From assembly GCA_964436805.1 (NCBI GenBank), contig CAYTEG010000002.1, forward strand, positions 1,916 through 41,012: a stretch of 39,097 nt of DNA, given 5' to 3'. A program made the translations under genes and the position numbers. The DNA is from an uncultured Candidatus Saccharibacteria bacterium (GTDB taxonomy: Bacteria; Patescibacteriota; Saccharimonadia; Saccharimonadales; EFPC-124). Below the pieces are notes generated by a model. The model saw only the letters and a program-made list of their open reading frames with translations, did no database searches and was not told where the DNA came from. Shown piece by piece: positions 1 through 25,290 of this stretch (position 1 is its first letter; the number at the start of each line of letters is the position of its first letter).

Positions 1-1812
1 CTCGGCGGCTGGGAACGAGCGGTCGGTGGAGCTGGCTGTGTTTTTGCCAGAATCGTAGGTAAATAATGACGTTTTGTCTTCGATTCGCCAGCTGTCGGCA
101 AAGGCTGGGTAGAGTTCTTTAAATGTTGGCTGGATTGTTTTATCGCTGCCGCGCGCGTGCAAATCGTTTTTGGTGTCGCCGTTTGCGTCGCCCAGCAGGC
201 CTTGTAATTTACCCACAAGTTCGTCGCTGGCGTCGACCGCTAGGTGGATGCCGTAGTTGCCAATTGGGTAAAACGTGGCGGTCGATTTGTTTGGCCAGGT
301 CACCGCCGCCACGTTGCCGGTGAGGTCGATGTTGCCGCCGCCAGGCAGCGCCATAGCCTTAAGCTCTTGGTCTTTGCCGTTTACCAAAAGCTGCATGGTG
401 TTGTAGTCGCGGGCGCGGATTTCTACTTTGTCGTCACCCACCTTCATGGCAATCGCCGTGTTGACGCTGACATCTTTTAAGCCGGGGAATGGCTGCTGGC
501 GGACTTGTAGCTCAAAATCGCCGTTGTCGGTGCGCGCGCCAACAAATTCGCCGACCGCCTGAAAGTCGTAACGCAAACCATCGAACGTTTTTAAGTGTGG
601 GTCGCCGTTAGAATCGGCGCAGTGTTCGCCGGTGCAGGCCGTGGCGGGCGGCGCGTTGCAGTCGCCACTCGGCAGAGCGTCGCGGCCGTAGTGGCTGCGT
701 TCGGGCATACCAAGGCGGGCGCGCAAAATGTTTTGGGCGCGCGTAGCCATGACTTCTTTTGTTTCGATGCCGCTGCCGGCGCAGTCGTCGCGGCTAAATG
801 TGCCGTTTTGCAGGTCGAGTACGTGGTACATTTCGTGGTACAAACTGGTGCATGGGTCGGCGTTGCCGCCAGTGCCGGCGTAGGGGTGCGTGTCGTTTGG
901 GTTCCAGTAAATGCGGTAGGTGTTTTCGCCGTACTGCGCGGTTTCGCTGCCGCCGGTGGTGGGTACGATTTCGATGGTAATTGCCGGGTTATTGGCAACG
1001 TCGAGCACCGGCCCGGTAATATCGCGGTTGGCTTCGAGCGTCCCCATACAGGTGTCGAACGCGCCCTGCATGTCGGGCGGCACAACAAAGTCGGCTTTGG
1101 CAGCCGGCGCATTTTGCCATAAAACGCCAACTAAACCAAGTAGTACAATCGCCGCAACTGCGCCCTTAGACGTAGGCTTTTTGCGGTGCTTCCAAAAATA
1201 CCACACGGCAAAAATAACAGCCGCAACACCAACAATAACAGCGATGATTTGCGCAATTAACACAAACATATTTGTGGTTGGCTGCACGGTGCTGGCGTAA
1301 GCGATGCCGCACGACGGCGCGCCACTTTCGGGGATGAGCGGCACGGTGTAGGTAAGCTCTAGCTGCAGCGGTTTTTTATCCTGCAGTTTATAAAACATGC
1401 CAAGGGCGCTAGCGCCGGGCGACCACGTAATCGTTTCGAGCCCTCGCCCAATGTTACGGTAATTGTCGGCGCGCAGTGCAATGTCGGCCGATTCGCCAGG
1501 TTTAAGCGTTTGCCAGTGGCGCGCGAGTTCTACCTCTACCCCATCGTCAAAACCGACGTTCATGGCGCTGGGTTCGACGTTTTTGCCGTCTTGCACAAGC
1601 TTTGTAATCGCCACCGTGCCCAGCGGCGAATTGATTATTTGGCAAGCAGCATTTGTTTTGTTGGTAAGCTTGATTGTTGGTTTTGCCGGGTCGTTATTTT
1701 GCACCACAGCCTCGAGGCCCGACGCCGCGGCCTGCGCAGGTTGCGTATATAAAAAGCCGCCCAAAAGTGCGGCGCTCACAACAATAAAACGAACCATTTT
1801 TGTGTATTTCAT
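1..1812 (-). CDS. Secreted/membrane-anchored multidomain protein: signal peptide + unknown domain, TM hairpin, HExxH zincin-like metallopeptidase domain, von Willebrand factor type D (VWD)-like domain with GDPH motif; 3' end runs off the window
   Basis: Own codon-by-codon translation of the minus strand gives an open frame from ATG at 1812 to nt 1 with no stop. It is absent from the supplied ORF track. N-terminus MKYTKMVRFIVVSAALLGGFLYTQPAQA is signal-like. Hydrophobic hairpin FVLIAQIIAVIVGVAAVIFAVWYFW-KHRKKPTSKG-AVAAIVLLGLVGVLW lies at about nt 1266-1110. HEMYH (nt 837-823) is followed by ETKEVMATRAQNILRARLGMPER. GDPHLKTFDGLRYDFQAVGEF (nt 606-541) is a typical VWD start. Confidence 0.8.
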   Translation of the reverse strand, partial: MKYTKMVRFIVVSAALLGGFLYTQPAQAAASGLEAVVQNNDPAKPTIKLTNKTNAACQIINSPLGTVAITKLVQDGKNVEPSAMNVGFDDGVEVELARHWQTLKPGESADIALRADNYRNIGRGLETITWSPGASALGMFYKLQDKKPLQLELTYTVPLIPESGAPSCGIAYASTVQPTTNMFVLIAQIIAVIVGVAAVIFAVWYFWKHRKKPTSKGAVAAIVLLGLVGVLWQNAPAAKADFVVPPDMQGAFDTCMGTLEANRDITGPVLDVANNPAITIEIVPTTGGSETAQYGENTYRIYWNPNDTHPYAGTGGNADPCTSLYHEMYHVLDLQNGTFSRDDCAGSGIETKEVMATRAQNILRARLGMPERSHYGRDALPSGDCNAPPATACTGEHCADSNGDPHLKTFDGLRYDFQAVGEFVGARTDNGDFELQVRQQPFPGLKDVSVNTAIAMKVGDDKVEIRARDYNTMQLLVNGKDQELKAMALPGGGNIDLTGNVAAVTWPNKSTATFYPIGNYGIHLAVDASDELVGKLQGLLGDANGDTKNDLHARGSDKTIQPTFKELYPAFADSWRIEDKTSLFTYDSGKNTASSTDRSFPAAE

Positions 1813-1898
1813 AAATAACCCTGTCATTAATAATAGCACCGCTTATATTGCATATGCTAGTTTACGCCTTTGCTTAATTCGGTTACTATACAAATAAT

Positions 1899-3068
1899 AT
1901 GGATAAGCTACGCACTGCGTTTTTGCTGACAATCACCATTACTTTGGCCGGGGTTTTGGCCTCGATGTTACTGCCGACGCCGGCAACCTGGATTGGCTCC
2001 GACCAGTCGTACCACTTGCGCCTGGCGATCGCACTTTTTATACCAGCCCTGCATGTGCTGGCTGCCATCTTCTTTTTTAGAGGTTTGACCGGCTTTAAAG
2101 AAGAATTTAGGACGGCATACAGCCTTATCGCCGTTGGCGTCATTATTATTGGTATCGCGCTGCTGGCTTCGCCAATGGTCACAATTTTCGACTTGTGGGA
2201 TTCGTGGGCGATGGAGCTCGGCGTCATTAACCTGCCATTTGTGTTTGCGGTGGTAACGATTTTTGCCGGTATCCGCACCTTTTACCGCAAGCTCGACGTG
2301 CAGACTATTTGGCGCTCGATGGGCTTTAATATTGCGTTTGTGCTGGCCGGTTTGGTGCTCGCCGTGTTTATGCCGCACGCGCGGTCGCTTTTGCCCGAGC
2401 TGCGCTACGACATCGGCAGCGTCTTTTTTGCGCTTAGTTCGCTCACCTTGCTTGTTACCGCGTTTAATATTCTTCCGATCCGCAAGCAAATCGCGCCAAA
2501 TTATGCCCGCGTTTTAACATGGCTTGGTGGCGGGCTGATTTTTGAGGCGGTTTTGGTTGGCATGTCGTTGGTGCTTAAGGCGTTTGGCATTGATGTGCGC
2601 CAGGCTTCGGGCGGCTTGCAGGATACGTTAATACTGGCGGCAATCCCCTACCTTGTGTCGGGCTATTTGTTTTACCAGCTTACGGCCGACATCCGCAGGG
2701 GCCTTACAAAGTCTGGCGGCGAAGTGATCGATGTGGTTATGTATGTTTCGTCGCTGGTTTCGAGCCGCAAAGCGATCGACACAATTTTAGACGAAGTGCG
2801 GCTTATTACTGCCCGTCGTCACCCCGGTGATCCAATCGGCGACGCTGACAAAGCAAAGTTGGCCGATGTGTACCTAAAACTCGAAAAATATTTAGCGACC
2901 GAAGAAAAACTGCGCTCGTTTACCGCCGAACAACTGCGCAGGCAAATGTATACCCGTTTTTATAACCAGGCGAGCGCAACGGTAGACACCGCATTTTGGC
3001 AGAAGCTGCCGCAATTAAAGGCTACGGCGCCGGTCGCACCGGTGCAAACGCCTGCAGCCCAGCACTAA
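1899..3068 (+). CDS. Polytopic membrane protein (about 8 TM) with soluble C-terminal domain, function unknown
   Basis: 389-aa ORF with repeated hydrophobic helices through about residue 270, then a charged helical tail (KAKLADVYLKLEKYLATEEKLRSF). Divergent from the VWD gene. Backbone-like composition. Confidence 0.7.
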   Translation: MDKLRTAFLLTITITLAGVLASMLLPTPATWIGSDQSYHLRLAIALFIPALHVLAAIFFFRGLTGFKEEFRTAYSLIAVGVIIIGIALLASPMVTIFDLWDSWAMELGVINLPFVFAVVTIFAGIRTFYRKLDVQTIWRSMGFNIAFVLAGLVLAVFMPHARSLLPELRYDIGSVFFALSSLTLLVTAFNILPIRKQIAPNYARVLTWLGGGLIFEAVLVGMSLVLKAFGIDVRQASGGLQDTLILAAIPYLVSGYLFYQLTADIRRGLTKSGGEVIDVVMYVSSLVSSRKAIDTILDEVRLITARRHPGDPIGDADKAKLADVYLKLEKYLATEEKLRSFTAEQLRRQMYTRFYNQASATVDTAFWQKLPQLKATAPVAPVQTPAAQH

Positions 3069-3223
3069 GTTTATTTTGGGGCGCCGCCGATGGCCGCTTG
3101 CGCGCTTAAGCATAATCTTTTTAAAAAATATAATTGCTAATAACGAAATATTGTGATAAAAATATACAGGCTAACAACGCCGTTTTTAATAATTACTTAA
3201 CTTTACAATAAGGCAAAATCCTC

Positions 3224-4186
3224 GTGGAGATTTTCTGGAGTTCCATCGACCTAACGCGGATTATCTTTTTACTCGGTGCCGTTTTAGCGCTGGTGTATAA
3301 AAAGAAATTTGGCGTCACTCCTGGTGGCATAATCGTACCCGGTACCCTTACCGGCATGTTATTTGCCAGCTTTACGGCATTTTTAATCGTACTTGTTTCG
3401 GCGGCGGTTTGTTTTCTTTTATATAAGTATACTTTTGGGCGATATGCGCTGACAAAGCGTTGGGCGTCACTTATTACCGTAAGTATTTCGGTGTGCCTTG
3501 GCCTTCTGGCGATGGGTATTGTCGAAGTTACCCATGTATTTAGTCAGGAGTTACTACTGTTTACCCTGGTTGTGCCTGGCCTGTTGGCAATTAGCGCCCA
3601 AAAATACGGGCCGAGCCGCGTGCTTATTGGCGCCCTCAGCGTCACTGCCGTATGTTACCTTGCCGGTTGGGCGTTGGTGTTGAGCCTGCCTTACGACCTG
3701 CTTACCTCTATGACCGTACAACTTGGCAAATACACGCAATTAAGCTTGGTTAACCCATATGTGGTGTTACCGGTAAGCCTTATTACGGCGATTTTGGTGT
3801 ACTACAAGTTTGGTATCCGCGGCGGCGGTTACTTAATTATGCCATTTGTGGCGTCGGTTGCATTTAGTTCGCCCATTCAGGCACTGCTTTTAATGGTCGG
3901 CGTGGCGCTTAGTTACCTGGCAGTTAAAATGGCGCTCAAGTTCACCCTTATGATTGGGCTGGAACGTTTTGTGTTTAGCTTGTTTTGCGGCTACATTATG
4001 GTGACATTGATTGATATTTTGGCCATCAACATCGAAATCGCCGGCTACCGCCCCGCCCCACTCGTGCTGATTATCGCCATTGCAGTGCTCACCAACGACC
4101 TTTCGCTGCAATCGCTTAAAACCACGCTGCAAAAAGGCGCAAGTACGTCGCTTATTATGTCGCACTTGGCAAGGTTGGCGGTATAG
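3224..4186 (+). CDS. pgsC: Poly-gamma-glutamate biosynthesis membrane protein PgsC/CapC, tandemly duplicated (about twice the normal length)
   Basis: GTG start. First half has GVTPGGIIVPGTLTGMLF and LVVPGLLAISAQKYG, resembling Bacillus CapC GIVPAGLVVPGYLGLVF and GIIVPGLIANTIQKQG as recalled from memory. Second half repeats the pattern in degenerate form (FGIRGGGYLIMPFVASVAF ... IIAIAVLTNDLSLQSLK). Its stop lies 1 nt before the pgsB start. Confidence 0.75.
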   Translation: MEIFWSSIDLTRIIFLLGAVLALVYKKKFGVTPGGIIVPGTLTGMLFASFTAFLIVLVSAAVCFLLYKYTFGRYALTKRWASLITVSISVCLGLLAMGIVEVTHVFSQELLLFTLVVPGLLAISAQKYGPSRVLIGALSVTAVCYLAGWALVLSLPYDLLTSMTVQLGKYTQLSLVNPYVVLPVSLITAILVYYKFGIRGGGYLIMPFVASVAFSSPIQALLLMVGVALSYLAVKMALKFTLMIGLERFVFSLFCGYIMVTLIDILAINIEIAGYRPAPLVLIIAIAVLTNDLSLQSLKTTLQKGASTSLIMSHLARLAV

Positions 4187-4187
4187 C

Positions 4188-5417
4188 ATGATTATTTTAG
4201 CCATTATTTCTGTGCTGGTCGCCGCGTATTTTGCGTTTGGTGTATACACCAAATTGCAACATCACAAAGCGATGTTGCAATTCGAACACCGCATACATGT
4301 TAACGGTATCCGTGGTAAATCTTCGGTGACGCGTTTAATTGCGGCTGCGCTGCGCGAAGGCGGCATTAAAACCGCTGCCAAAACTACCGGCTCGGCCGCG
4401 CGCATTTTGGTCGACCACAACACCGACACTCCCGTGCCGCGCAAAGAAGCCGACATTGCCGAACAACGCCGCATGCTCAAATTTTACACCGGCGATCTGC
4501 ACCGCATGTACACCGGCGAAGATTACAAAGCGGTGGTGTTTGAGTGCATGGCGATCAACCCAATCTACCAACGTTACCTCGAAGAAAACATTATGCTTTC
4601 GACCATCGGCGTCATTACCAACGTGCGCGAAGACCACGTCGACGTTATGGGCGACACGCTGCCAAAAATTGCGCGCAGCCTTGCCAACACGATCCCTAAA
4701 AATGGCCACTTGGTCACCGCCGAAACAAACCCCGAGCTTTTGGCTGTGCTGCAACAAGAATGCGACCTGCGCGGCACCACACTGTACGCTGTTGGCAACG
4801 CCCGCATTAGCGACAAACACATGGCGCAGTTTGGCCACTTCGAATACAAAGCCAACGTCGCGATCGCCCTTAAAGTTGCCGCACTTGCCGGCGTCAGCCG
4901 CGCCACCGCTATTAAGGGCATGCACCGCGCGCTGCCCGACCCAGGCGCTTTTACGCTTAAAAAAGTTGAGCGCAAAAACAAAACCGTGCACTGGGCCAAC
5001 CTGTTTGCTATCAACGACCGCGAAAGTTTTGTATTGACGGTCGAGTCGCTGCATTCAAAAGTGGGCACAAAAGCTAAAAAAGCGGTGATCCTCAACAACC
5101 GCCAAGACCGCCCGGAGCGCGTCGTGCAGTTTTTGGACATTTGCTTAAACTCAATCAATGCCGACTACATTTTTACGTTCGGCGACTACGAGGCGCAAAT
5201 TCAGCAGGAACTTAAAAAGTACCCTGGCGTCAAAGTAAAAGTGGTGCACCTTGGTAATTCGACCGACTTTAAAGACGCCGAAGGCGAAGTGTTGTTAGAC
5301 AAAATCGCTGCCACCTTTAAGCAAAAAGAGTGCATTTTGTTTGGCGCGGTTAACATCCACACGCCGCAAGCCCAGGCGCTGCTTGGCGTATTAGAAGGCA
5401 ACGTACATGCGCATTAA
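4188..5417 (+). CDS. pgsB: Poly-gamma-glutamate synthase PgsB/CapB (Mur-ligase-like amide ligase)
   Basis: N-terminal TM helix, then NGIRGKSSVTRLIAAALREGGIKTAAKTTGSAARIL, ECMAINPIYQ, NVREDHVDVMG and LPDPGAF. These are colinear with Bacillus PgsB (GIRGKSTVTRL..GKTTGTDAR..ECMAVNPDYQ..NVLEDHMDVMG..PPDPGA). I chose the ATG at 4188. The track ORF start at 4080 would overlap pgsC. Confidence 0.9.
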   Translation: MIILAIISVLVAAYFAFGVYTKLQHHKAMLQFEHRIHVNGIRGKSSVTRLIAAALREGGIKTAAKTTGSAARILVDHNTDTPVPRKEADIAEQRRMLKFYTGDLHRMYTGEDYKAVVFECMAINPIYQRYLEENIMLSTIGVITNVREDHVDVMGDTLPKIARSLANTIPKNGHLVTAETNPELLAVLQQECDLRGTTLYAVGNARISDKHMAQFGHFEYKANVAIALKVAALAGVSRATAIKGMHRALPDPGAFTLKKVERKNKTVHWANLFAINDRESFVLTVESLHSKVGTKAKKAVILNNRQDRPERVVQFLDICLNSINADYIFTFGDYEAQIQQELKKYPGVKVKVVHLGNSTDFKDAEGEVLLDKIAATFKQKECILFGAVNIHTPQAQALLGVLEGNVHAH

Positions 5418-7328: not shown

Positions 7329-7853
7329 CTAGTTGCTAAGTATAACCGCCGACTGCAGGTGTGCGACGTCGGTAACCTGCTGCACCATAAACTTGCCAAA
7401 GTCTTTGGCCGATACGGCAAGGCTTGGATGATCCTGCAAAAAATCGGCGTTTAGCAGCGCCGCAGACGCCGAATGGACGACCGTCCAGTCGAGTGATGTT
7501 TGTTGCAGTACCTCGGCCACGCTGGGCTCGTTTTGTGCGGGCTTAAGGGCGTCAAGGTGGGTCGCGACAATAAGCCGTTTAAGGTCGTAGGCATACATAC
7601 ACGCCACCAGCATATGCAGTGTATGGGGAGTAAAAGAAGTGTCGGGGAGGCTGATTACCGCGTGCGCGTTTGCAAGCGCTTGGGTGACATCGGCCTCGTT
7701 TTGTGGCGAACCCACAACAACAGATAGGTTTTCGTGAATAAGATTAGGTGCAGGCTGCCCGGTAAGCATTGTTACCTCGTAGCCGTGACGTAGCGCCTGC
7801 CGTACAAACTGCCGGCCGGTTTTGTCTGATCCGCCTAACACTGCTAGTCTCAT
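7329..7853 (-). CDS. NAD(P)H-binding (NmrA/atypical SDR-like) oxidoreductase
   Basis: MRLAVLGGSDKTGRQFVRQALRHGYEVTMLTG is a Rossmann GxxGxxG-type N-terminus. I chose the ATG at 7853 over the track start at 7901. Confidence 0.7.
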   Translation of the reverse strand: MRLAVLGGSDKTGRQFVRQALRHGYEVTMLTGQPAPNLIHENLSVVVGSPQNEADVTQALANAHAVISLPDTSFTPHTLHMLVACMYAYDLKRLIVATHLDALKPAQNEPSVAEVLQQTSLDWTVVHSASAALLNADFLQDHPSLAVSAKDFGKFMVQQVTDVAHLQSAVILSN

Positions 7854-8012
7854 GCGTATCCCCCTTTTTGCGATACTACACCAAACATAAACAGGCGGCA
7901 AATTGCCGCGCGGTTGGCCACTGTGAGCGTTGTATTTTCTGCTTTCACGAGTGTGATGCTAACGCACGTTGCCTCGCGAGTCAACACTATTTTTTAAATC
8001 ACTCCTACGGCG

Positions 8013-8225
8013 CTATCGTCGAACCTTCAACATCAACCGTAAATTAGACAAATACCCTTCGGGCGTCACTAATTTATGCGTGCGCACATACTGCACGTGG
8101 TATGCCACAAACGGCATTTGGTTATTTGGCCAATCCGTTTTATTGGTGGTAAATGACGGCTTGGTAATAAGGTTAGGGTCGCGCTCCATGGTAACAAGGG
8201 CGGCGACCAGCTCTTTTTCGGTCAT
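8013..8225 (-). CDS. Hypothetical 70-aa protein
   Basis: ORF with balanced composition (MTEKELVAALVTMERDPNLI...). No family recognised. Lies downstream of the histidine kinase on the same strand. Confidence 0.4.
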   Translation of the reverse strand: MTEKELVAALVTMERDPNLITKPSFTTNKTDWPNNQMPFVAYHVQYVRTHKLVTPEGYLSNLRLMLKVRR

Positions 8226-8353
8226 GACGAACCTATTTTTTAACCTTAGGTTTCTTTTTTTCGCGCCCGGTTTTATTTTTTGAGCCCATAATGTTGTTGT
8301 CTTTCGTTAGTTATATTAATAGTATGCGCCAGATGAGGCAAAAATCCTAATTT

Positions 8354-9688
8354 TTACCGCGGTAACGTTAGGGTGAAGGTTGTGCCTTTGTCTTGTTGTG
8401 ACGCAAAACTGACGCTGCCGCCGTGCCTTTGCAGCACCGTTTTAACAAGGTATAGCCCAAGGCCGGTGCCCGGAATATCGCTTTTAACGGCGTTGCTTGC
8501 GCGGTAAAACCCTCGGAACACCTTATTTTGCTCGCTGGCCGGTATGCCAATGCCTTGGTCGGTAACCAAAATATTATGGGTTTTGGCGGCCTGCTGGTAC
8601 GAAATAGTCACGGCCGTGCCGTTTTTGGTGTATTTTATTGCGTTCGAAAGTACGTTGTGTAGCGCGCGCCGCATTTGGTCGGGGTCGCAGTTGATGGTCA
8701 GTTTTGCCGGCCAGTATTGGTCGAACACAAGCGTCACCTCTTTTTGCTGGGCGCTCAGCGCCTGGGTGTCGACGATCTCGTGCATCAGCGCCGAAAGGTC
8801 GGTTGGCTTAACCTTTAAGCTGCGGCCATTGGTGGCGTGCGAAAGTTCCAAAATGTCGTTGGTACTGGCTTGCAGCCGCAGGGCGCTGTCTAAAATCGCC
8901 TGTATCATTTTTTTGATGCGCGGTTCGGAGGTGCCCAGCGTCAGCACACTTTCGGCCGCCCAGCGGATGCCGGTGATTGGGCTGCGCAGCTCGTGCGATG
9001 CCACCGAAACAAGCTCCGACCGCAGCGCCAGCAACTGCGAGTTGTGCCGCCTAATGCGTTCGAAAACAAGCAAAATAAGGATGATCGTCGTGCCAATAAG
9101 CAGCGGGATGAGGCTCGACATTACAATACTCCGCCAGTAGGTTTCGGAGTCGATGTCGATGCCGACAACCGCCAAAACACTATGCGATTTTTCGTCGAAA
9201 ATAGGCGCGATCCCAGATATAAACGAGCCGTAGCTATCGGTTGTTGGGCCTTCGACAAACGCTTTGCCGTCGTTAAAAATGGCGCTGTCTTCGGCGGTGC
9301 CGTCGTCGTATTGCTCGCCGGCGGCCGAATATTGGTCGCTCGTGGGTTGCTCCGAATCGACGTAAAAGAACAGTTGGTCGTCACGCTTGCCCATTATATA
9401 AACGCTGCGGGCGTCGGGGTTGGCGGCTTTAACTTCGGCGAGCGTTGTTTTAAGCCCGCTATACACTGCCGTTCCGGCGTCGCTGGCGTCACCATTTAGC
9501 TGGGCGATTTGCGATGGCCCCAAAGCGGCGGCAATTGACTGGCTACGCTCGCCCAGTTGGGTGCGCAGCGCCAGGCGCGCGGCGTTACCAAACCAAAACG
9601 CGCCCACAATGCTTGCAATGCCAACAAAAATAACAAGAATAATAGCAACAATATGGAACGTGTCTTTTTCGCGAGGCGTCAAATGCAT
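8354..9688 (-). CDS. Sensor histidine kinase with extracytoplasmic Cache/PDC-like sensor domain (no adjacent response regulator)
   Basis: TM1 (IVAIILVIFVGIASIVGAFWF), an extracytoplasmic domain of about 170 aa (YIMGKRDDQLFFYVDSE...GPTTDSYGSFISGIAPIFD...AVVGIDI), then TM2. H-box SHELRSPITGI, N-box LSNAIKYT, G-box GTGLGLYLV. Confidence 0.85.
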   Translation of the reverse strand: MHLTPREKDTFHIVAIILVIFVGIASIVGAFWFGNAARLALRTQLGERSQSIAAALGPSQIAQLNGDASDAGTAVYSGLKTTLAEVKAANPDARSVYIMGKRDDQLFFYVDSEQPTSDQYSAAGEQYDDGTAEDSAIFNDGKAFVEGPTTDSYGSFISGIAPIFDEKSHSVLAVVGIDIDSETYWRSIVMSSLIPLLIGTTIILILLVFERIRRHNSQLLALRSELVSVASHELRSPITGIRWAAESVLTLGTSEPRIKKMIQAILDSALRLQASTNDILELSHATNGRSLKVKPTDLSALMHEIVDTQALSAQQKEVTLVFDQYWPAKLTINCDPDQMRRALHNVLSNAIKYTKNGTAVTISYQQAAKTHNILVTDQGIGIPASEQNKVFRGFYRASNAVKSDIPGTGLGLYLVKTVLQRHGGSVSFASQQDKGTTFTLTLPR

Positions 9689-9757
9689 AGGCCACCAAAG
9701 TTATAAGTGCTTACGATTAGCATACTTTGTTTTGCCTTGGCGCGCTAGTGGAACGGT

Positions 9758-9792
9758 CGCCGGCACCCTACGGTCGTGGTAGGATGCCGGCG
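9758..9792 (-). terminator. GC-rich 14-bp-stem hairpin 3' of the SLOG pair
   Basis: cgccggcaccctac / gtaggatgccggcg arms (one G-U wobble) with a 7-nt loop, starting 7 nt past the stop of 9799..10575. No U-tract. Confidence 0.55.
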
Positions 9793-9798
9793 TGATGT

Positions 9799-10575
9799 CT
9801 ACGAGGCCTGGCGTACAAAGCCGTTGCGGCCGAGCCAGGCCTGCGTGTCGGCCGGCGAATCGAGTATGTCGATGCGTGAAACGTCGGCGATTTGGTCGGC
9901 AACGCCGCCCGAGCCGCGCACGACGGCACAGGGGTGGCCGCGTTCGACCGCTTCGGTGATCTCTTGCAGCGTTACGTCGCCGCCGCCAAACACCCACAGC
10001 CCGGTCGCCATGCCGCCCGCCCGCAACAGATCCATCAGATCCATATACAGTGGGATATCGAGCGTGTACGAGTGCCGTTGCTGGCTGGCTGTGGCCTGCA
10101 CGTACCAAAACAGGTCGCTGCCGGGGTGTACGGCGGTGCGCGACTGGGCACTGTCGCTGGGCACAAACCGCGAATCGCCAACCAACGATGAGGTCGGCTT
10201 GGTGCGCGGCGCGCTGCCCATGGTGCGGCATTTGGAGTGCCACTTGCGGATCAGCCACGGCAGTTCCAAAACCGTCATGGCAACCCGTTCGTCGGTGTCG
10301 ATCAGCCGGGTGCCGCCGCTCATAAGAACGGTGGGCACCAGTGGTACTGGCTTAAAGGCGGCTTCGATGTGTTCGTACAGCCGCCGCCGTTCGGGTGGCG
10401 ACAGCCCGGCAACGCCGCCCGCAAACCGCAAAATGGCCCGCATGCCGAAGCACTGCTCGACCACCTGGTTGGGGATGCTATCGCTGGCGTTGGCGAACAC
10501 CAGTGCTACCCGGCCTTCGGGCGTGTCGACGACGTACTGGCGGCCGGGTTCGAACACACGGTCGAAGTTTGTCAT
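9799..10575 (-). CDS. SLOG-superfamily (LSDAT/LOG-like Rossmann) protein, paralogue B, 258 aa
   Basis: Start ATG at 10575 overlaps the stop of the upstream gene (ATGA). Motifs RFAGGVAGLSP, LMSGGTRL, VFGGGDVTLQEITEAV (GGGxxTxxE) and VVRGSGGVADQIA, the last like the TRPM/LSDAT SGxxAD as recalled from memory. The 169-aa N-terminal extension in the track ORF is Arg/Pro junk overlapping paralogue A. Confidence 0.7.
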   Translation of the reverse strand: MTNFDRVFEPGRQYVVDTPEGRVALVFANASDSIPNQVVEQCFGMRAILRFAGGVAGLSPPERRRLYEHIEAAFKPVPLVPTVLMSGGTRLIDTDERVAMTVLELPWLIRKWHSKCRTMGSAPRTKPTSSLVGDSRFVPSDSAQSRTAVHPGSDLFWYVQATASQQRHSYTLDIPLYMDLMDLLRAGGMATGLWVFGGGDVTLQEITEAVERGHPCAVVRGSGGVADQIADVSRIDILDSPADTQAWLGRNGFVRQAS

Positions 10576-11351
10576 CGGCGGCTGCCTTTGGTAAAGTCGC
10601 GCGCGGCCAGTACACTGGCGATCTCGGCTGCAGTGCACACCACGAGGTTGTCTTGGTAGCGCGTGCAAAATTCGCGGTCGCTTGCGTATTGCCCGGCCAC
10701 GCCGCCGCTGTCGGAGACCAAAATCACCCACCAGGGGTTGTCGGGGTCGTGCGGCAGGTTGACGACGTGCAGCAGTTCGCGTTCGGTCGTTTTGCCGCCG
10801 CCGTACAGCAGGTGTGCCGTGCGAAAGCGGCGCGGCGATTCGCGCAGAACTTCGAGGTAATCGAGCGCCACCATCCATTCGGCGTCCCAGTCGGGCGCGC
10901 CGCGGTCGGCCGAGTACTGCAGCACAAGGCAAAACTGAAGGCCAGGGTGCACGGTCGTGACGTATGGGTTTTCGGGCTGGTCGTCGATAACCAGCAGGTC
11001 GGTGCCGGGCAGCCACTGCATGGCAGTCTGGCGCGGGGCGACTCCCACAACGACAACTTCGGGATGCGCGTCGTGGATCCATGGCAGCACCTCGGTAATG
11101 CCGGGTAAGACCACGTTTGTCCCACGAATCCGCATGCTTGTGCCGCCGCCGATAACCGTGCAGGCTGCGCCTTCAAACGCTGGCACGATCGAGTCGTACA
11201 TGGCGTTGACAGCACTCGGCGTGAGGCTCGCGCAGCCGCCGCAAATCTTTACCGCAGCGGCAGTCGGCGACGATGCCAACTGCAGCGCCGTCAGGCGCGA
11301 GTTGGGGAACTGCATGTTTTCGATCAAAAGGCGCACGCCATTTCTGGCCAT
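10572..11351 (-). CDS. SLOG-superfamily (LSDAT/LOG-like Rossmann) protein, paralogue A, 259 aa
   Basis: SD-like gagggggtgaagg precedes the ATG at 11351. Motifs KICGGCASL, TVIGGGTSMR, VVVVGVAPR, LLYGGGKTTERELL (PGGxGTxxE-like) and LVSDSGGVAGQYA. Colinear by eye with paralogue B. Confidence 0.7.
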   Translation of the reverse strand: MARNGVRLLIENMQFPNSRLTALQLASSPTAAAVKICGGCASLTPSAVNAMYDSIVPAFEGAACTVIGGGTSMRIRGTNVVLPGITEVLPWIHDAHPEVVVVGVAPRQTAMQWLPGTDLLVIDDQPENPYVTTVHPGLQFCLVLQYSADRGAPDWDAEWMVALDYLEVLRESPRRFRTAHLLYGGGKTTERELLHVVNLPHDPDNPWWVILVSDSGGVAGQYASDREFCTRYQDNLVVCTAAEIASVLAARDFTKGSRR

Positions 11352-11409
11352 ACCTTCACCCCCTCGGTGCTACATGCTGGCACACTTGTTGCGCCAGGAC
11401 ATCCAGGCG

Positions 11410-11438
11410 ATTATAAAATTGATTTGTGTTTTTGTCGA
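11410..11438 (-). promoter_or_regulatory. Predicted sigma70-type promoter of the SLOG pair
   Basis: On the minus strand: TCGACA (11438-11433), 17-nt spacer, TATAAT (11415-11410). About 59 nt upstream of the ATG at 11351. Confidence 0.5.
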
Positions 11439-11440: not shown

Positions 11441-11470
11441 TTGCGGGCGCGCACAAAAGTCATATAGAAT
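11441..11470 (+). promoter_or_regulatory. Predicted promoter of the KwaB-like gene, back-to-back with the SLOG promoter
   Basis: TTGCGG (11441-11446), 18-nt spacer, TAGAAT (11465-11470). Its -35 box is 2 bp from the -35 box of the divergent promoter. Confidence 0.4.
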
Positions 11471-11511
11471 ACGGCTAATGGTTAACACGCCTGCCGCCGG
11501 CAGGTTTATAA

Positions 11512-12525
11512 ATGGAGTATCGAAGCATGGATCCAGACAGCGCCGCCGCCCCCGCCGCCCCCACCGCCCCTCAGCCCAAACCCGAAACCGACATTTTTGC
11601 CTGGGCGAACAACCTGTTTTTGCACAAAGATAAACTACAAATCGAGATTTTTTTGCTTAGCAAAACAAATGTGCTGTACCGCACGCGCTACGCCGAGGCG
11701 TTGGGCCGGCAGACGCATCCGCTTTTAATTGACAGCATGCTAGAATTTATTGTCACCGGTGCCGGCGCGGGTTTGGTGGTGAGCACCTTCGAAGAAGCCG
11801 AAAACGAAGAAAACGTGTTGCAAAAAACAGCGGTCGCCAACGTCGATAAGTTGGTCGAAGCCATGAGCTGGCTCGGCAAACAAGAAGCCGACATGGAGCA
11901 ATTTAGCGAAGAAGACCACGATCTCAAGCGCATAAAAGGCATAATTGTGCGCGTCACCCATCCCGAAATCACGCCGTTTTATGTGATTAAAGCGCTCAGC
12001 AGCTCCAACATTTTAAAGGGTGTCGGCGCCTGGATGATTAGCGGCAACAAGTTTGACGCGCTCGACAACGGCGCAGCGCTACGCATCCCTAACGACAGCC
12101 AACTTTTGATCGTCGACGACGAACTGTACGTGTTTAACCAAAGTAAATTGGAGCGCCTGTTTGGCTACAACGCCAAAAAGAACGCCATTGCCGACAAAAA
12201 AGTGCGCGAAATCGAAGCCAACTTTAAGTTGAGCTTCGCCGACGACTTAACCCTGCAGGCCATGGTAAAAGAAAGCAAGCCGCTTATTAACAAACTGCAA
12301 AAAATCGACCCCAGCGCCATTAAGCAAGATGCGCTGCTCGACCACAGCGAAGAAATGGGCTTAGGTTTAATGACCGACCTCGAGGGCGCGATTATTATTA
12401 TGGACAACAAAGACTTGTCGAAGTTTGTTAACCTGCTTAACGACGACTACGTCGAATCAAACCTCACCGGCAACCGCTACGAAATTAAAAGCAAAAGGTT
12501 GTTAAAACCCGAGGGTGAAGAGTAG
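11512..12525 (+). CDS. DUF4868 / KwaB-like (Kiwa defence component B family) protein
   Basis: 337 aa. Segments RIKGIIVRVTHPEITPFYVIK, LRIPNDSQLLIVDDELYVFNQSKLERLFGY and the C-terminal SKFVNLLNDDYVESNLTGNRYEIKSKRLL parallel E. coli KwaB segments recalled from memory (..FIKLMSDDYLQSDLTK.IY.S.AKDRL). An alternative start at ATG 11527 has a better SD (ggag, 9 nt upstream). Confidence 0.6.
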   Translation: MEYRSMDPDSAAAPAAPTAPQPKPETDIFAWANNLFLHKDKLQIEIFLLSKTNVLYRTRYAEALGRQTHPLLIDSMLEFIVTGAGAGLVVSTFEEAENEENVLQKTAVANVDKLVEAMSWLGKQEADMEQFSEEDHDLKRIKGIIVRVTHPEITPFYVIKALSSSNILKGVGAWMISGNKFDALDNGAALRIPNDSQLLIVDDELYVFNQSKLERLFGYNAKKNAIADKKVREIEANFKLSFADDLTLQAMVKESKPLINKLQKIDPSAIKQDALLDHSEEMGLGLMTDLEGAIIIMDNKDLSKFVNLLNDDYVESNLTGNRYEIKSKRLLKPEGEE

Positions 12526-12537: not shown

Positions 12538-12942
12538 ATGCATTTTATTAAGCGTTACCCCATTATTGCGGTCATAACCATTGCCATACAGTTTGTGCTT
12601 GGCACAATTGCCAGCATGTACGTTGAGTTTCCGGAGGGCGCTGACAGTGCCGCCCAGTGGCATTTTATATGGACGAGCCCGATTGTACTGGCGCACGTGC
12701 TGCTTGGCGTCGCCATTGCCATTGGTGCGGCGCGGTTTTTAATAGCGGTGTGGCTTAAAAAGCAAAAAGATTTGTTGCCTTACGCGGCCTCTGGCGCCGT
12801 TGCGGTATTTTTGGCAGCGCTTGGTGGCGAAAGGTTTGTCGCTACGCAGGACGACCTGTGGTCACTACTTATGGCACTCGGATTTTTGGCTAGCATTATT
12901 ATTTACATGGCAGCGCATTTTGTTACCAGCAAACGTACATGA
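12538..12942 (+). CDS. Small 4-TM membrane protein (134 aa), function unknown
   Basis: Four hydrophobic helices at roughly residues 8-27, 46-70, 80-97 and 108-128. Starts 12 nt after the KwaB-like stop. Its stop overlaps the next start (ATGA at 12939-12942). Confidence 0.65.
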   Translation: MHFIKRYPIIAVITIAIQFVLGTIASMYVEFPEGADSAAQWHFIWTSPIVLAHVLLGVAIAIGAARFLIAVWLKKQKDLLPYAASGAVAVFLAALGGERFVATQDDLWSLLMALGFLASIIIYMAAHFVTSKRT

Positions 12943-14288
12943 AGCGTTCGCCTCGCCTCTCCCAACATTTTTTGGTTAATCCGCAAATCGTAAAGACACT
13001 GCTTGGCCACGCTAGTATTGGCAAGCAAGATGTTGTATACGACATTGGCGCTGGCTCGGGCGTAATTACCAGCGTGCTGGCCGGCGCGGCTAAAAAAGTG
13101 GTGGCGGTCGAGGTTGACGAACCGACTTTGGCAAAACTGCGCCAAAACGTTGGTGCACTTAAAAATGTAGAAGTTGTGGCGGCAGACGCTACAAAAATGC
13201 CGCTGCCGCGCACGCCGTATAAAGTACTCGCGAATATTCCGTTTCACCTAAGTTCGCAGATTGTGCAGCGCTTTTGCGACGCGCCAAACCCGCCAAGCGC
13301 CATGTATTTAATTGTGCAGGAACAGTTTGCGCGCAAGCTGTTGCCCGACAACAAAGGCTTTACCAACCAATTGGCCTTGCAGTTGGGGCCAACCTTTGCT
13401 ATTCGCATTCGCCGCAAACTGCAGCCCACTGATTTTTACCCGCGCCCCAATGTGCCCACAGTGTTTATCGAAATCGCCAAACGCCCCACGCCGCTGCTTG
13501 CCAAACCGCAACAACGCCGTTTTACCCTGCTTGTAAAAAACGCCTTTGCCGACCCGCGCAAGTTTTGGCGGCTGCCGCTGGGCGAGCTGGGCATTTCGCC
13601 AATTGCCGCGCCGTCGAGCTTAACGCTCGACCAGTGGCTGCAGTTATTTGCCGTACACGAAGCCGCACCCGAAAAACAAGGCATGGCGCTCATCGACCCC
13701 ACAAATCCATTATTAAATATGGTCATCGAGCCGGTCGCGCCCAACGAAATAAACGCCCCGCACACCCGCTATATTATTGAGCGCATGCTGCAGCTGGCCG
13801 CCGGCGCTGGCAAAACAAAAGCCGACACGCGCCAAATGGTTGGCCTGGCCGCGCCGCAAATTGGCGTGAACAAACAAATTGTTATTATCGATACCGCCGC
13901 CACCGGCGCTAACCAAAACCAGCGCCATCAGGTGCTTATTAACCCGCGTATTGTCTGGCAATCGGCCAAAAAAGTGCTTGGCCGCGAGGGGTGTTGGTCT
14001 TGTGGCAATATTTGCGGGGCGGTGGAGCGCGCCGAAAGCGTAAAAGTACAGGCGCTCGACGCCAGTGGCAAGCCCATTGCATTGACGCTCAAAGATTTTC
14101 CGGCCCGCGTTGCCCAGCACGAAATCGACCATTTAAGCGGCATTCGGTTTCCCGACCGCATTACCGACGACAAAGAACTGCACTGGGTCGAGCCGCAACA
14201 GTTCGAAGATTACCGCAAACAGTGGCAAACCTGGCCGCACATATGCCCGCGCAGCAAATGGCTCGAGCTCAAAGCCAGTTCTCATTGA
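12939..14288 (+). CDS. Fusion protein: KsgA/Erm-family rRNA adenine N6-methyltransferase (N-terminal about 245 aa) + peptide deformylase (C-terminal about 190 aa)
   Basis: N-terminal part has LSQHFLVNP, VYDIGAGSGVIT (SAM motif I), VLANIPFHLSSQIV (N-I-P-F/Y motif IV) and LIVQEQFARKL. C-terminal part has all three PDF motifs: VGLAAPQIGV (GxGxAAxQ), EGCWSC (EGCLS) and QHEIDHLSG (HExxH). One uninterrupted 449-aa frame. Confidence 0.8.
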   Translation: MKRSPRLSQHFLVNPQIVKTLLGHASIGKQDVVYDIGAGSGVITSVLAGAAKKVVAVEVDEPTLAKLRQNVGALKNVEVVAADATKMPLPRTPYKVLANIPFHLSSQIVQRFCDAPNPPSAMYLIVQEQFARKLLPDNKGFTNQLALQLGPTFAIRIRRKLQPTDFYPRPNVPTVFIEIAKRPTPLLAKPQQRRFTLLVKNAFADPRKFWRLPLGELGISPIAAPSSLTLDQWLQLFAVHEAAPEKQGMALIDPTNPLLNMVIEPVAPNEINAPHTRYIIERMLQLAAGAGKTKADTRQMVGLAAPQIGVNKQIVIIDTAATGANQNQRHQVLINPRIVWQSAKKVLGREGCWSCGNICGAVERAESVKVQALDASGKPIALTLKDFPARVAQHEIDHLSGIRFPDRITDDKELHWVEPQQFEDYRKQWQTWPHICPRSKWLELKASSH

Positions 14289-16562: not shown

Positions 16563-17120
16563 TCACACGAACGCGCCGGCCAGGTTGGTCAGCGGCTCAG
16601 TGGCCGCGGGTAGGGGTATCGGCTTCTTGAGCCGAACCTCGACCTCGCTCTTGACGAACCGTACTTCTGCGGCCAGGCCGGTGGCCAGCAGCCGCCGCCT
16701 GATCGTCGCGCGGCGGCGTGGCCGGCGGCGCACCCACTTGCGGTAGCGGAGTTGGGGTTCGATGCTGAGCCAGTGCTCTGGCTTGGCGATGATCGTCATT
16801 CCCACGTAGTGGCCGGTGGCGAAGGTGTAGCCGAGCGCCAAGTCCCAAGCCTCGACCCCTGCGGGAAGTGTTGCGGTGACGCGCTGGACGGCGTCGAGCG
16901 CCGAGCTGGCGCCCTCGACAGGGATGTTCTTGCTCTTGCTGGGGCGGGGTGACGGCTTGCGCCCCTCGCTGGCGTATAGTCCGACCAGCCTCGGGTGACC
17001 TTTAATGCTGCAATCGGTCACGCCGTCATGGTAGAACGTGAAGATCGTGGCGTGGTCATTCCCCGCCCCGATCGTCAGGTGTGCTTCTGTAAACACCGCA
17101 TTTCCCTTCGACGGTGACAT
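16563..17120 (-). CDS. Hypothetical protein (185 aa) with Arg-rich segment; possible paralogue of the next gene
   Basis: GC-rich ORF. ATG at 17120 chosen; the track extension to 17204 lacks support. Sequence PQLRYRKWVRRRPRRRATIRRRLL. TATTAT lies 7 nt upstream of the ATG with no SD, suggesting a leaderless transcript. Confidence 0.55.
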   Translation of the reverse strand: MSPSKGNAVFTEAHLTIGAGNDHATIFTFYHDGVTDCSIKGHPRLVGLYASEGRKPSPRPSKSKNIPVEGASSALDAVQRVTATLPAGVEAWDLALGYTFATGHYVGMTIIAKPEHWLSIEPQLRYRKWVRRRPRRRATIRRRLLATGLAAEVRFVKSEVEVRLKKPIPLPAATEPLTNLAGAFV

Positions 17121-17210
17121 CTTGCATATAATAAGTGCAGGGTGGTGTAAAAGTAAATAGCTGAGCTTTTGCACGGCCAGCCCGGTGTGGGGCCGGCCGT
17201 GCATGGGCGC

Positions 17211-17780: not shown

Positions 17781-17942
17781 ACTGATAATAACAAAAAAGT
17801 ATTGCCGGATGTTTGCTTTGCGCAGCCGTATAGTACCAATATGTGGTTTTGATGTAAAGGCAAACTATACAAAAGTTATCTTTTGTGATATAAATATTTT
17901 TTAGTAGTCTCTGCAAGAGGAGACTGAGTGAGAGGGCATGAA

Positions 17943-18986
17943 ATGGATCCCCTCAGCAAGGAACAAAAGACGTTCAAGAAGGTCGTCGAAGACCGGAAGG
18001 CCACGAGCGTCGCCGCGTCACTCGTCGTCGCCGTCTTCGCGCTCATTACCGCGATCTTCGGTGTTGGAGTCACCCACATCCCGTACTACGCCTCTATCGC
18101 GACGTTCTGGGCTGACGCCGGGATTGTCCTGGCTGGGTTCGTGGTCGCGGCGGCGCTGTCGGTGCTGGCGTACAAAGCGACGCGTCGCAAGACGGTCGTG
18201 AGTACGGTGGCTCTGCACCTGCTCGCGGTGTCGACGTTGGTTGCGGCCCTCGTGGCCGGCTTCCGCTACGACTCGCCCGAGTGGCATGCGGCGGCTGCGG
18301 CGCGCGAACAGGTCTACGCCGACCTCGAGGTCGACAAGACCATCGAGCACCCCAGGGACTACAGCGGCATTGTCGTGCCCTGTGTTGTTGGGGCGCATGT
18401 CGGCGTTTGCAAGAACGCCGTGCGCCAGTCGGTGTACTTCGACAAGGGTGGTATGTCGGGAACGCTCGGTGTACCGCGCAAGGGAATCGTTTCTTTTCCG
18501 ATCCGCAAGGTGACGATCGGCGACGGTGCCGCGACGCGCTGGGCCATCGGCTGCACCTACAACGGCACGTGGCACAACTGGGATGAACGGCAGGCGTCGG
18601 GCATTCCGCTGGGCGTGCATGTGCTCAACCACCACGCGTGCCCCGTCATCTTCGAGCCGGCTTCGCCCGCGGTGACCGAGGTTGCCAAGGACATGGAGGC
18701 TCAGGGTATCGGCTACATGTACAAGACGGGTGAGCGGCCGTCCTTCTATGAGGGCGGCGTGGCTGTAACCGCACCCGACCAGGCAACCGCCTGGGTGACC
18801 GGTTTCGGCCTGCACGCGCCCGCCATGTTCCCGCTCCGCAAGGTCAACGGGCACTGGTGGCTCGGCTGCGTCTTCACTCCGATGGAGGGCAAGCCGTTTT
18901 GGCTGCCCTGGACGGCGCCGTTCCCCGGTACAACCCAGCTCGTCGGCGACTTCGTCGCCCAGCACGGTGCCTGCCTCGGCGGGTAA
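17943..18986 (+). CDS. Membrane protein: 3 N-terminal TM helices + Cys-containing extracytoplasmic domain with internal repeat
   Basis: ATG at 17943 preceded by gagaggg 8 nt upstream. TM helices SVAASLVVAVFALITAIFGVGV, ADAGIVLAGFVVAAALSVLAY and VALHLLAVSTLVAALVAGF. Repeat FPIRKVTIGDGAATRWAIGCTY / FPLRKVNGHWWLGCVF. GC-rich. Confidence 0.65.
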   Translation: MDPLSKEQKTFKKVVEDRKATSVAASLVVAVFALITAIFGVGVTHIPYYASIATFWADAGIVLAGFVVAAALSVLAYKATRRKTVVSTVALHLLAVSTLVAALVAGFRYDSPEWHAAAAAREQVYADLEVDKTIEHPRDYSGIVVPCVVGAHVGVCKNAVRQSVYFDKGGMSGTLGVPRKGIVSFPIRKVTIGDGAATRWAIGCTYNGTWHNWDERQASGIPLGVHVLNHHACPVIFEPASPAVTEVAKDMEAQGIGYMYKTGERPSFYEGGVAVTAPDQATAWVTGFGLHAPAMFPLRKVNGHWWLGCVFTPMEGKPFWLPWTAPFPGTTQLVGDFVAQHGACLGG

Positions 18987-19871: not shown

Positions 19872-20444
19872 TTACAACTTGAAACAGCTGAACTTTTGCT
19901 GGCCGACCGGCAGGTCGAATGATTTTCCATTGGCGTGCGCCATCACCTTGGCCGGCAGTTGTTTCAAATCGTCGGCCGTGACCGGTTTGTCGGGTTCGAT
20001 GCCGGTACTGCACTGATAGTGCGGCTGCGTCAGCCCCGACGGCCGGATAGTGTCTGTGCCCGGCCAGTCGTCGCCGTACACGATGAGCGCAGCGTTGAAG
20101 TTGCGCCAATCGGCTGCCAGCGTCGGAACTTTCTTGAGCGACCGCGACACCCACGGTTCGGCCGTGCTGCCGTGCCCTTGCTTGATGTTCGAGCCCGGCT
20201 TGCCGTAGTAGATAACGGCAAATTCGTCCTTGCCATCGCGGTCAGGCAGGCGGTACTGAATCCCAAACGGCCTGTAGCCGGCCGCCCCGAGCGCCTTGGT
20301 CGTGGCGTCGGGCTCGGCGGTGACGGCCGTTTGTTCTGACGGCTGCAGGTTCTTGTACTCGGTTGGCATTGCTGGCGCAGGGGCCAGGCCGCATCCAACA
20401 AGTACTAAGAGCGCCGCCACAACAATCCACAAACTTTTCTTCAT
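19872..20444 (-). CDS. Lipoprotein, function unknown
   Basis: MKKSLWIVVAALLVLVGCGLAP is a signal peptide with lipobox L-V-G-C. GC-rich. SD ggaaggga. Upstream TTGACG, 17 nt, then a TTTAAT-like promoter. Confidence 0.7.
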   Translation of the reverse strand: MKKSLWIVVAALLVLVGCGLAPAPAMPTEYKNLQPSEQTAVTAEPDATTKALGAAGYRPFGIQYRLPDRDGKDEFAVIYYGKPGSNIKQGHGSTAEPWVSRSLKKVPTLAADWRNFNAALIVYGDDWPGTDTIRPSGLTQPHYQCSTGIEPDKPVTADDLKQLPAKVMAHANGKSFDLPVGQQKFSCFKL

Positions 20445-20602: not shown

Positions 20603-21202
20603 TCATGCCGGGAACTGGTTGACCAGCTCCATCATGGCGGCGAGGCCGACGTTGTCGTAGAAGGTGACCTCCACGGCTTCGCCGTCCTCCAGATCCACCC
20701 GCTCGTAGCGCGACAGGCGGTCGTCGTGATCGGCCTTGGCGGCCAGCAGGACGGTGGCGTACGTGCTCCAGCGCTCGGCGTCGAAGAACTGCGCGCCACT
20801 GGCCAGCGTCTGCCGCACGGACAGCATCTGGTCGCCCAGCACGGTGATGCCCAGTTCGGGCTGCGCCGAGTCGGCGGATAGCGCGAACTGGTGTTCCGTG
20901 AGCGAGCAGCGCTTGTTGTTGAAGGCGGAGGCGATGACCGCGTCGGCCTCGTAGAGCTCGACGGCCCCGAGGTCGGCCGTGAACACCATGCCGTCGTCAC
21001 CCTCTCTGAAGGTGAACGACAGATTGGCCTTCTGCAGCGTTTGGGCGACCGACAGATAGTGCCACTCCTCCGTGAGGTGGATGGCGGCCGTGCAGTTCCC
21101 CTGCGGGTCGGTGCTGATCGTCACTTCGGCCGAGACCTTGTCGGTGTTGGCCTCCATGTAGACGTTCAGGAACAGGCTACGCAGGGTCGGGTTTTCGGAC
21201 AT
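20603..21202 (-). CDS. Hypothetical cytoplasmic acidic protein (199 aa)
   Basis: GC-rich ORF (39/60 GC in line 20641-20700). SD gaggag at 21214-21209. Perfect consensus promoter upstream. No family recognised. Confidence 0.65.
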   Translation of the reverse strand: MSENPTLRSLFLNVYMEANTDKVSAEVTISTDPQGNCTAAIHLTEEWHYLSVAQTLQKANLSFTFREGDDGMVFTADLGAVELYEADAVIASAFNNKRCSLTEHQFALSADSAQPELGITVLGDQMLSVRQTLASGAQFFDAERWSTYATVLLAAKADHDDRLSRYERVDLEDGEAVEVTFYDNVGLAAMMELVNQFPA

Positions 21203-23634: not shown

Positions 23635-23689
23635 GTCACTCCTTGGGGTCGATGCGTGGCATATATTTAACCATGTTTTATTAAAATTG

Positions 23690-23726
23690 AACACCCCGCC
23701 TTGACCACCAGGCCACGCGGGGCGTT
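23690..23726 (-). terminator. Terminator hairpin, repeated module copy 2
   Basis: aacaccccgc (23690-23699) / gcggggcgtt (23717-23726). On the minus strand it is followed by ttcaattttaat. Confidence 0.65.
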
Positions 23727-23747
23727 CTGGTAGGTTGACGGGGTGGG

Positions 23748-25275: not shown

Positions 25276-25290
25276 AAGGTGGGGCGGGGT

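Follow-up and report, generated by a model that had tools for sequence, protein, structure and literature searches.

Paralogous TRPM-type SLOG genes form a conserved pair in a Candidatus Saccharibacteria genome and in metagenomes, with a possible role in NAD homeostasis

The prokaryotic "SLOG in TRPM" family was reportedly described by Burroughs et al. in 2015 (NAR) in conflict-system contexts with SLATT-type effectors. To our knowledge, the reading of prokaryotic LSDAT/SLOG proteins as conflict sensors comes from genome context only, and we know of no characterised member. In the MHR1/2 region of the channel TRPM2, ADP-ribose (ADPR) is contacted by Y295, which clamps it, and by R358, which holds its phosphates (PMC6759353). 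Two adjacent genes, here called A and B, were identified in a 39,097-nt stretch of an uncultured Candidatus Saccharibacteria bacterium (GenBank assembly GCA_964436805.1, contig CAYTEG010000002.1, positions 1,916–41,012; hereafter the window). They encode paralogous TRPM-type SLOG domains (LSDAT_prok) that diverged long ago, and the pairing is kept far beyond this genome. The best explanation overall, held at slightly less than even confidence, is that A and B form a hetero-oligomer of NAD homeostasis that would bind or process an NAD-derived nucleotide. An initial annotation, made from the sequence alone, had instead proposed a sensor of a conflict system.

The initial annotation described two minus-strand genes joined by an ATGA overlap, and both the open reading frames (ORFs) and the sequence agree (Table 1). 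The overlap couples translation of B to that of A. The two genes had also been called paralogues by eye. All five motif pairs quoted in support are found in the translations, and paralogy is borne out over the full length by BLASTP (28% identity over 196 aa, E=6e-14) and by profile–profile comparison of the two orthologue sets in hhalign (99.3% probability, E=2e-20, 233 columns). Each is a single-domain protein of 258–259 aa by Pfam and AlphaFold2 (AF2). The description of a self-contained, bicistronic and translationally coupled cassette lacking a fused or adjoining effector is supported.

Fold and family were assigned with near certainty: A and B are TRPM-type SLOG (LSDAT) proteins. B matches Pfam LSDAT_prok (PF18171) at E=1.6e-8 and 34.5 bits, above the gathering cut-off of 25.4, over profile positions 111–172 of 195 only. 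A has no direct Pfam match, and neither protein has a PADLOC match or a meaningful NCBIfam match. LSDAT_prok is matched by 102 of 143 family representatives, and the motif order noted earlier, from Gly-rich loops through GGxxTxxE to SGR, is the same as in that family. A profile of the 143 sequences aligns to residues 147–367 (MHR1/2) of human TRPM2 at E=1.7e-7. The only solved relatives by sequence are TRPM2 and TRPM8, and the sole non-TRPM match in a PDB sequence search with the profile is the SLOG protein 1RCU (E=0.007). AF2 models built on the 143-sequence alignment reached a predicted local distance difference test score (pLDDT) of 95.5 for A and 95.8 for B. In Foldseek searches of the PDB, the best 50 matches of A and of B are all TRPM channels. 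The best matches of A are the MHR1/2 regions of TRPM3, TRPM4 and TRPM2 (E ~1e-8, TMq 0.64) and those of B the MHR1/2 region of TRPM2, ADPR-bound forms included (E=1e-10). The Pfam match of B, the TRPM-like folds and the profile alignment to TRPM2 show that the earlier placement in the LSDAT clade of the SLOG superfamily was right for both proteins. Membership among housekeeping LOG enzymes was ruled out. Neither A nor B matches Lysine_decarbox in Pfam at E≤1, the nearest LOG-related NCBIfam match is TIGR00725 (13.4 bits vs a cut-off of 106.9), and TRPM channels are best by both sequence and fold. As a separate observation, P0078, P0080, P0092, P0131 and P0148 are 640–801 aa long and end C-terminally in an A-type SLOG domain, which is preceded by an extended helical region and a segment resembling GNAT; P0131 alone among the five has a match, a weak one, to Acetyltransf_1.

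Word-indexed searches returned few relatives only, and the counts given here rest on an exhaustive profile search. It yielded 504 clusters (50% identity, E≤1e-3), 70 of which reach E≤1e-30. Nearly all are stand-alone proteins of 240–300 aa, and they split cleanly into A-type and B-type. Of 52 metagenome loci, nine lack the pair; seven of these end within 250 nt past A, leaving 45 informative loci, and B lies directly 3′ of A on the same strand in 43 of them. The A-then-B arrangement also occurs in the window and in eight further loci obtained by look-up or genome scan, including Collierbacteria metagenome-assembled genomes (MAGs), and A and B carry consecutive locus tags in one NCBI MAG. Spacing ranges from a short overlap to a gap of about 110 bp, with overlaps of 4–8 nt in L003, L005/6, L016, L019, L020, L040 and L045; L050 and L055 have one ORF inserted between A and B. 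The A/B duplication dates far back, with both copies retained. All named members are annotated "hypothetical protein" and come from MAGs or metagenomes. The Collierbacteria members and several contigs of 1.0–1.2 Mb suggest that the hosts are small-genome bacteria resembling the candidate phyla radiation (CPR). A third conserved gene, "F1", called in 14 loci, was rejected: it is an ORF in the antisense shadow of B, produced by greedy ORF picking where loci are GC-rich.

The flanks of the pair vary, and a majority of the genes there lie on the other strand or at a distance above 100 bp. Among 141 neighbours from 28 loci, the Pfam families that recurred most often were NUDIX (4), tRNA_Me_trans/MnmA (3, owed to synteny among Collierbacteria), CTP_transf_like (3), NAD_kinase (3), NAPRTase (2) and NrtR_WHD (2). 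With individual scans and tblastn, NAD-linked genes were found at 7/24 non-redundant loci flanked by 3 kb or more of sequence (Table 1). The A proteins of these seven loci share only 47–61% identity and the gene order differs, so the association exceeds inherited synteny. Directly 3′ of B in four loci is a fusion of an NMNAT-like cytidylyltransferase with an NAD kinase, 462–485 aa in length, which would unite two NAD(P) synthesis steps in one protein. NrtR is an ADPR-responsive repressor of NAD genes, and its regulon includes nrtX-nrtY, an operon of two genes with no assigned function, in Streptomyces, Frankia, Kineococcus, Proteus and Hahella (Rodionov et al. 2008, PMC2330246, Table 1 therein). 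A link between the A-B family and NAD is reasonably probable.

Signature motifs kept in both subfamilies are RxTGG, GGTR, GxxPR, HP, Q, W-x-x-[ED], (Y/W)NGGxxTxxE and GSGR. Conservation was counted over 140 A-type and 71 B-type sequences. The W is present in 94% of A-type and 91% of B-type sequences, the acidic residue in 99% and 100%, the GGxxTxxE Glu in 100% and 98%, and the GSGR Arg in 83% and 92%. In the family profile alignment the GSGR Arg aligns with TRPM2 R358. The conserved W/Y corresponds to TRPM2 Y295 through the motif W/Y-x-[LV]-[DE]-[IV]-P-L, a motif match rather than a superposition. The aromatic residue is retained in the window as W155 of A and Y170 of B, and the window pair also retains the acidic residue and the GGxxTxxE Glu.

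A single bicistronic mRNA with a conserved promoter, 5′ untranslated region (5′-UTR) hairpin, ATGA coupling and 3′ hairpin encodes both proteins. The pairing pattern suggests that they assemble into an A:B hetero-oligomer, which we consider fairly probable. The Rossmann-like cleft of each subunit would be the one that in TRPM2 MHR1/2 holds ADPR. It may bind an NAD-derived ribose-phosphate nucleotide, such as an ADPR-, nicotinamide mononucleotide (NMN)- or nicotinic acid mononucleotide (NaMN)-like ligand, and the module would serve NAD homeostasis, not phage defence. The pair could act as a LOG-like N-glycosidase that releases a base and ribose-5-phosphate, or as a ligand-binding regulatory subunit. 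Sequence features weakly favour an enzyme, because the GGxxTxxE Glu is invariant in the family and lost in TRPM2 and because the proteins carry no output domain. The more specific proposal of an ancient hetero-oligomeric module that performs or regulates a so far unassigned NAD-salvage step in uncultured bacteria with small genomes, for example as an NMN/NaMN or ADPR N-glycosidase, is rather unlikely in that exact form. For the window's own copy, NAD homeostasis is a possible role, held with clear reserve.

Several points weigh against this reading. Non-catalytic SLOG sensors, ThsA among them, retain the GGxxTxxE Glu too, so it is no proof of catalysis. The NAD association is confined to one sub-clade, from which the scan patterns were seeded, and no NAD genes stand beside the pair in loci of the window lineage or of Collierbacteria. 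The true exceptions to pairing are L044 and L051. L044 has A with no adjoining B. Elsewhere, in L002 (9807–10001), a close relative of the window, A is precisely deleted while promoter, leader, B and 3′ hairpin are kept, so B can persist alone. Single copies of this kind would fit two independent SLOG homo-oligomers, each with its own ligand or substrate, that are co-expressed for a shared pathway and form no heteromer. The full set of signature residues in both subfamilies, which would allow each protein a functional site, and the lack of an A-B fusion among the 150 best representatives point the same way. The invariable A-then-B order of every pair found and the frequent stop/start overlaps speak for one complex, since such tight stoichiometric coupling would be typical of its subunits, and LOG-family proteins are dimers with sites at the interface. 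Independent homo-oligomers are judged unlikely. As to L051, an A-type gene (2783–4060) breaks off after about residue 182 and continues directly as an nrtR homologue, which could reflect a pseudogene, a fusion or an artefact of assembly.

Other points on the same side come from the window lineage itself. Six loci (the window, L001–L004 and L007) are syntenic, with the order BipA ... HxlR, rRNA methylase, KwaB-like gene / A B / histidine kinase ... GreA, Crp. Within this block A and B evolve much faster than any other gene, with identities of 41–67% and nonsynonymous divergence (dN) of 0.26–0.63. The corresponding values are 81–91% and 0.06–0.13 for the KwaB-like gene, and identities are 64–76% for the histidine kinase and 87–97% for BipA fragments. 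A dN four to five times that of the KwaB-like neighbour is also compatible with a role in conflict or with decay. At 4/7 signature positions window A departs from the family residues (R, T, R and R), reading K35, C37, S72 and G217, and window B has Y170 and G224 in place of W and R. Among 42 pairs, only that of the window has no GSGR Arg in either subunit, and this Arg is absent from all A proteins of the lineage. The window pair is the most derived of the pairs compared. The window copy is a fast-evolving variant that has lost the phosphate-clamp Arg from both subunits and has no NAD neighbours; given the partial loss of putative ligand contacts, it probably has an altered ligand or an altered or weaker activity. 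These losses, together with the high dN and the deletion of A in L002, could also mark a decaying relic, a pair that has lost ligand binding in this lineage and persists under weak constraint or in an unrelated role. Both ORFs are intact, however, with pLDDT of 95–96, and conservation extends to the promoter, the UTR hairpin, the translational coupling and the hairpin after B. The W/Y, acidic residue and Glu remain in place, and dN is below synonymous divergence (dS) in every comparison, at a ratio of about 0.2–0.5 that is rough because dS is saturated. Decay is considered very unlikely.

The expectation of a conflict-system sensor was not supported. Neither A, B nor any family member matches PADLOC, and among the PADLOC matches of the 141 neighbours, the best 25 of 46 families each fall on at most two proteins and are mostly of the Ser/Thr-kinase type PD-T4-6. 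A defence island was ruled out on these grounds. No SLATT, TIR or SMODS partner was found among the recurrent neighbour families or 30 individually scanned neighbours. Adjoining same-strand genes outside the window lineage show no two-helix membrane (SLATT-like) pattern; within the lineage, the gene after B encodes a histidine kinase with two transmembrane (TM) segments. A TIR or Thoeris match is lacking in the four proteins scanned (A, B, the KwaB-like protein and the histidine kinase). A mobile-element origin was also rejected, since IMG/VR pattern scans and searches of GenBank phages, PLSDB plasmids and BFVD folds yielded no relatives. NAD-salvage genes are the only recurrent functional neighbours, and some loci lie beside NAD-recycling genes, not anti-phage genes.

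A defence reading can still be built on the divergent KwaB-like (DUF4868) neighbour, in which the SLOG pair would sense a phage-induced nucleotide signal together with the KwaB-like protein, as a Kiwa variant with the pair replacing KwaA. The gene adjoins A-B in all six lineage loci with conserved blocks in the shared intergenic region, A and B diverge far faster than it does, and other SLOG domains are sensors in Thoeris-type systems (PMC9503650). Adjacency adds little, because synteny in these genomes extends over the entire region, and KwaB-like genes are absent from every A-B locus outside the lineage. The KwaB-like protein scores 62.9 bits against the NCBIfam KwaB equivalog cut-off of 200. 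It is conserved on a par with BipA, at 85–94% identity across the six diverged genomes, while flanking genes are 45–75% identical, and its variation is confined to the first ~24 residues, which are Pro/Ala-rich. This is a core-gene rather than a variable defence-gene pattern. No KwaA was found; a nearby 134-aa protein with four TM segments has no KwaA, NCBIfam or PADLOC match, and four of the six loci lack its gene. From its BipA-like conservation, the lack of KwaA and its absence from other A-B loci, the KwaB-like gene is treated as context and not as a shown partner of A-B. Together with the lack of PADLOC matches and of phage or plasmid copies, this makes the Kiwa-type reading highly improbable, and NAD homeostasis is preferred. 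BipA-like conservation is itself odd for a supposed defence gene.

The cassette has its own promoter, as the initial annotation held: 11/12 positions match the consensus and the boxes are kept in orthologous loci. A –35 box TxGACA and a –10 box TATAGT/TATAAT align in the window and five orthologous loci, and three promoter-like sites were observed in the region vs 0.7 expected from shuffled sequence. When the 5′-UTR of each locus was folded singly, the same hairpin formed in all six, with different stem letters. The leader has no Rfam match at either gathering or permissive thresholds, which ruled out a known riboswitch. The element may act as a cis-regulatory RNA or as an operator for a protein. 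A hairpin shortly after the promoter is also seen in other A-B family loci. The predicted 14-bp-stem hairpin after B was confirmed. It has no U-tract and was not reported by intrinsic-terminator calling. A GC-rich hairpin stands directly 3′ of the B stop in 6/6 orthologous loci, with differing sequences.

The claim of a GC-rich cassette held in part. GC content is 0.635 for A and 0.647 for B, against a gene mean of 0.556 (standard deviation 0.053) and 0.503 for the KwaB-like gene. This excess is real and common to the orthologues, but it is not singular, as about eight other window genes are as GC-rich. In the six loci, GC ranges over 0.58–0.64 for A and 0.59–0.66 for B, with 0.51–0.56 for the loci overall. 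High GC is a stable property of the cassette. Recent horizontal acquisition as its cause was ruled out because the cassette is GC-rich in all six syntenic loci. Composition of the window is bimodal, with one set of ORFs at GC 0.61–0.67 and GC at third codon positions (GC3) up to 0.92, vs about 0.52 for the rest.

Further features were noted around the cassette. The divergent intergenic region shared with the KwaB-like gene contains a nearly invariant 22-nt block, TAACCATTAGNGCTATTYTATA, at 11463–11484. A GC hairpin at 11490–11504 stands directly before the KwaB-like start codon, and its stems covary in the six loci. The block and hairpin may be a promoter or operator of the KwaB-like gene. Beyond this gene, the four-TM protein gene is present in 2/6 lineage loci only, and its stop is overlapped by 4 nt by the start of a 449-aa ORF.

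Table 1. Positions of features in the window and arrangement of NAD-linked loci
Locus	Feature	Position	Strand	Basis or remark
Window	GC-rich 3′ hairpin just after B stop	9758–9792	minus	14-bp stem, –28.8 kcal/mol, z=–3.9
Window	Gene B, B-type TRPM-like SLOG protein	9799–10575	minus	ORF, 258 aa
Window	ATGA stop/start overlap	10572–10575	minus	ATG of B and TGA of A, read from sequence
Window	Gene A, A-type TRPM-like SLOG protein	10572–11351	minus	ORF, 259 aa
Window	Ribosome-binding region of A, GAGGGGGTGAAGGT	11352–11365	minus	read directly from sequence
Window	5′-UTR element GATGYCC-hairpin-CGTAGYA	11368–11403	minus	flanking blocks invariant in six loci
Window	Sigma-70-type promoter TCGACA-17 nt-TATAAT	11410–11438	minus	consensus scan, 11/12 matches
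Window	KwaB-like (DUF4868) gene, divergent neighbour	11512–12525	plus	Pfam KwaB E=1.2e-14
Window	134-aa four-TM protein	12538–12942	plus	ORF downstream of KwaB-like gene
Window	449-aa ORF, fusion of RrnaAD (N-terminal) and peptide deformylase (C-terminal)	12939–14288	plus	Pfam matches of L003 orthologue
Window	GC-rich ORF set	16563–17204, 17928–18986, 19872–20444, 20603–21202, 23215–23901, 25279–25737, 31404–31832		composition
L024	NrtR ... A-B-[NMNAT-NAD kinase fusion]-Nudix-PncB-x-HisPhos-NadE		all co-directional	individual scans and tblastn
L030	NrtR ... A-B-NMNAT/NADK-PncB-Nudix-x-NadE			individual scans and tblastn
L021 and L048	A-B-NMNAT/NADK			individual scans and tblastn
L020	NADK-PncB-A-B			individual scans and tblastn
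L014	NrtR-A-B			individual scans and tblastn
L025	NrtR four genes upstream			individual scans and tblastn
L021	NMNAT-NAD kinase fusion	2805–4196		domain scans
L024	NMNAT-NAD kinase fusion	7667–9121		domain scans
L030	NMNAT-NAD kinase fusion	9711–11099		domain scans
L048	NMNAT-NAD kinase fusion	1538–2923		domain scans

The A-B family offers a two-paralogue handle on LSDAT/SLOG proteins across hundreds of clusters from uncultured bacteria, and one clade is embedded in NAD-salvage operons with the ADPR-responsive NrtR. If the pair does bind or cleave NAD nucleotides, it would be a new component of NAD metabolism in salvage-dependent organisms. It would also provide an evolutionary rationale for ADPR gating of TRPM2 and a small, soluble, well-folding model of the TRPM ligand pocket. 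If it is an NAD-salvage module, the ADPR-sensing domain of TRPM channels would descend from a bacterial protein of NAD metabolism and not from an immune sensor. The stakes are lower for the window copy, a divergent member with eroded signature residues.

Among known systems, MHR1/2 of TRPM2 (LSDAT_euk) is the best structural and PDB sequence match, and the family consensus keeps an aromatic residue and a GSGR Arg that correspond, the former by motif, to the ADPR contacts Y295 and R358. A and B differ from TRPM channels as stand-alone proteins of ~260 aa with no channel, MHR3/4 or NUDT9H. TRPM2 lacks the GGxxTxxE Glu that the A-B family keeps, and the equivalent of its R358 is Gly in both window proteins. 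LOG and PpnN resemble A-B as stand-alone members of the SLOG superfamily with no output domain and a GGxGTxxE-type motif with a conserved Glu, and by this analogy theirs would be the most plausible chemistry if A-B is an enzyme. They are homo-oligomers, not paralogue pairs, and the LOG catalytic Arg motif is not evident in A-B. ThsA of Thoeris likewise binds an NAD-derived signal, a cyclic ADPR (cADPR) isomer, through a SLOG domain (PMC9503650). The ThsA domain is a member of the YpsA-like clade, is joined to an effector (SIR2 or other) and is encoded beside a TIR gene, none of which holds for A-B. Likeness to Kiwa is limited to the neighbour matching KwaB/DUF4868 models, which differs in falling far under the NCBIfam KwaB cut-off, in lacking KwaA and in its core-gene-like conservation and synteny. 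Full-text searches on LSDAT/SLOG and NrtR/SLOG, which did not cover the 2015 family paper, gave no such pair. The closest relative is LSDAT_prok itself, which A-B resembles in the above-threshold match of B, the matches of family representatives and the motif order. From the usual description of LSDAT_prok, A-B departs as a strict paralogue pair with no effector that is found, in part of the family, within NAD-salvage operons.

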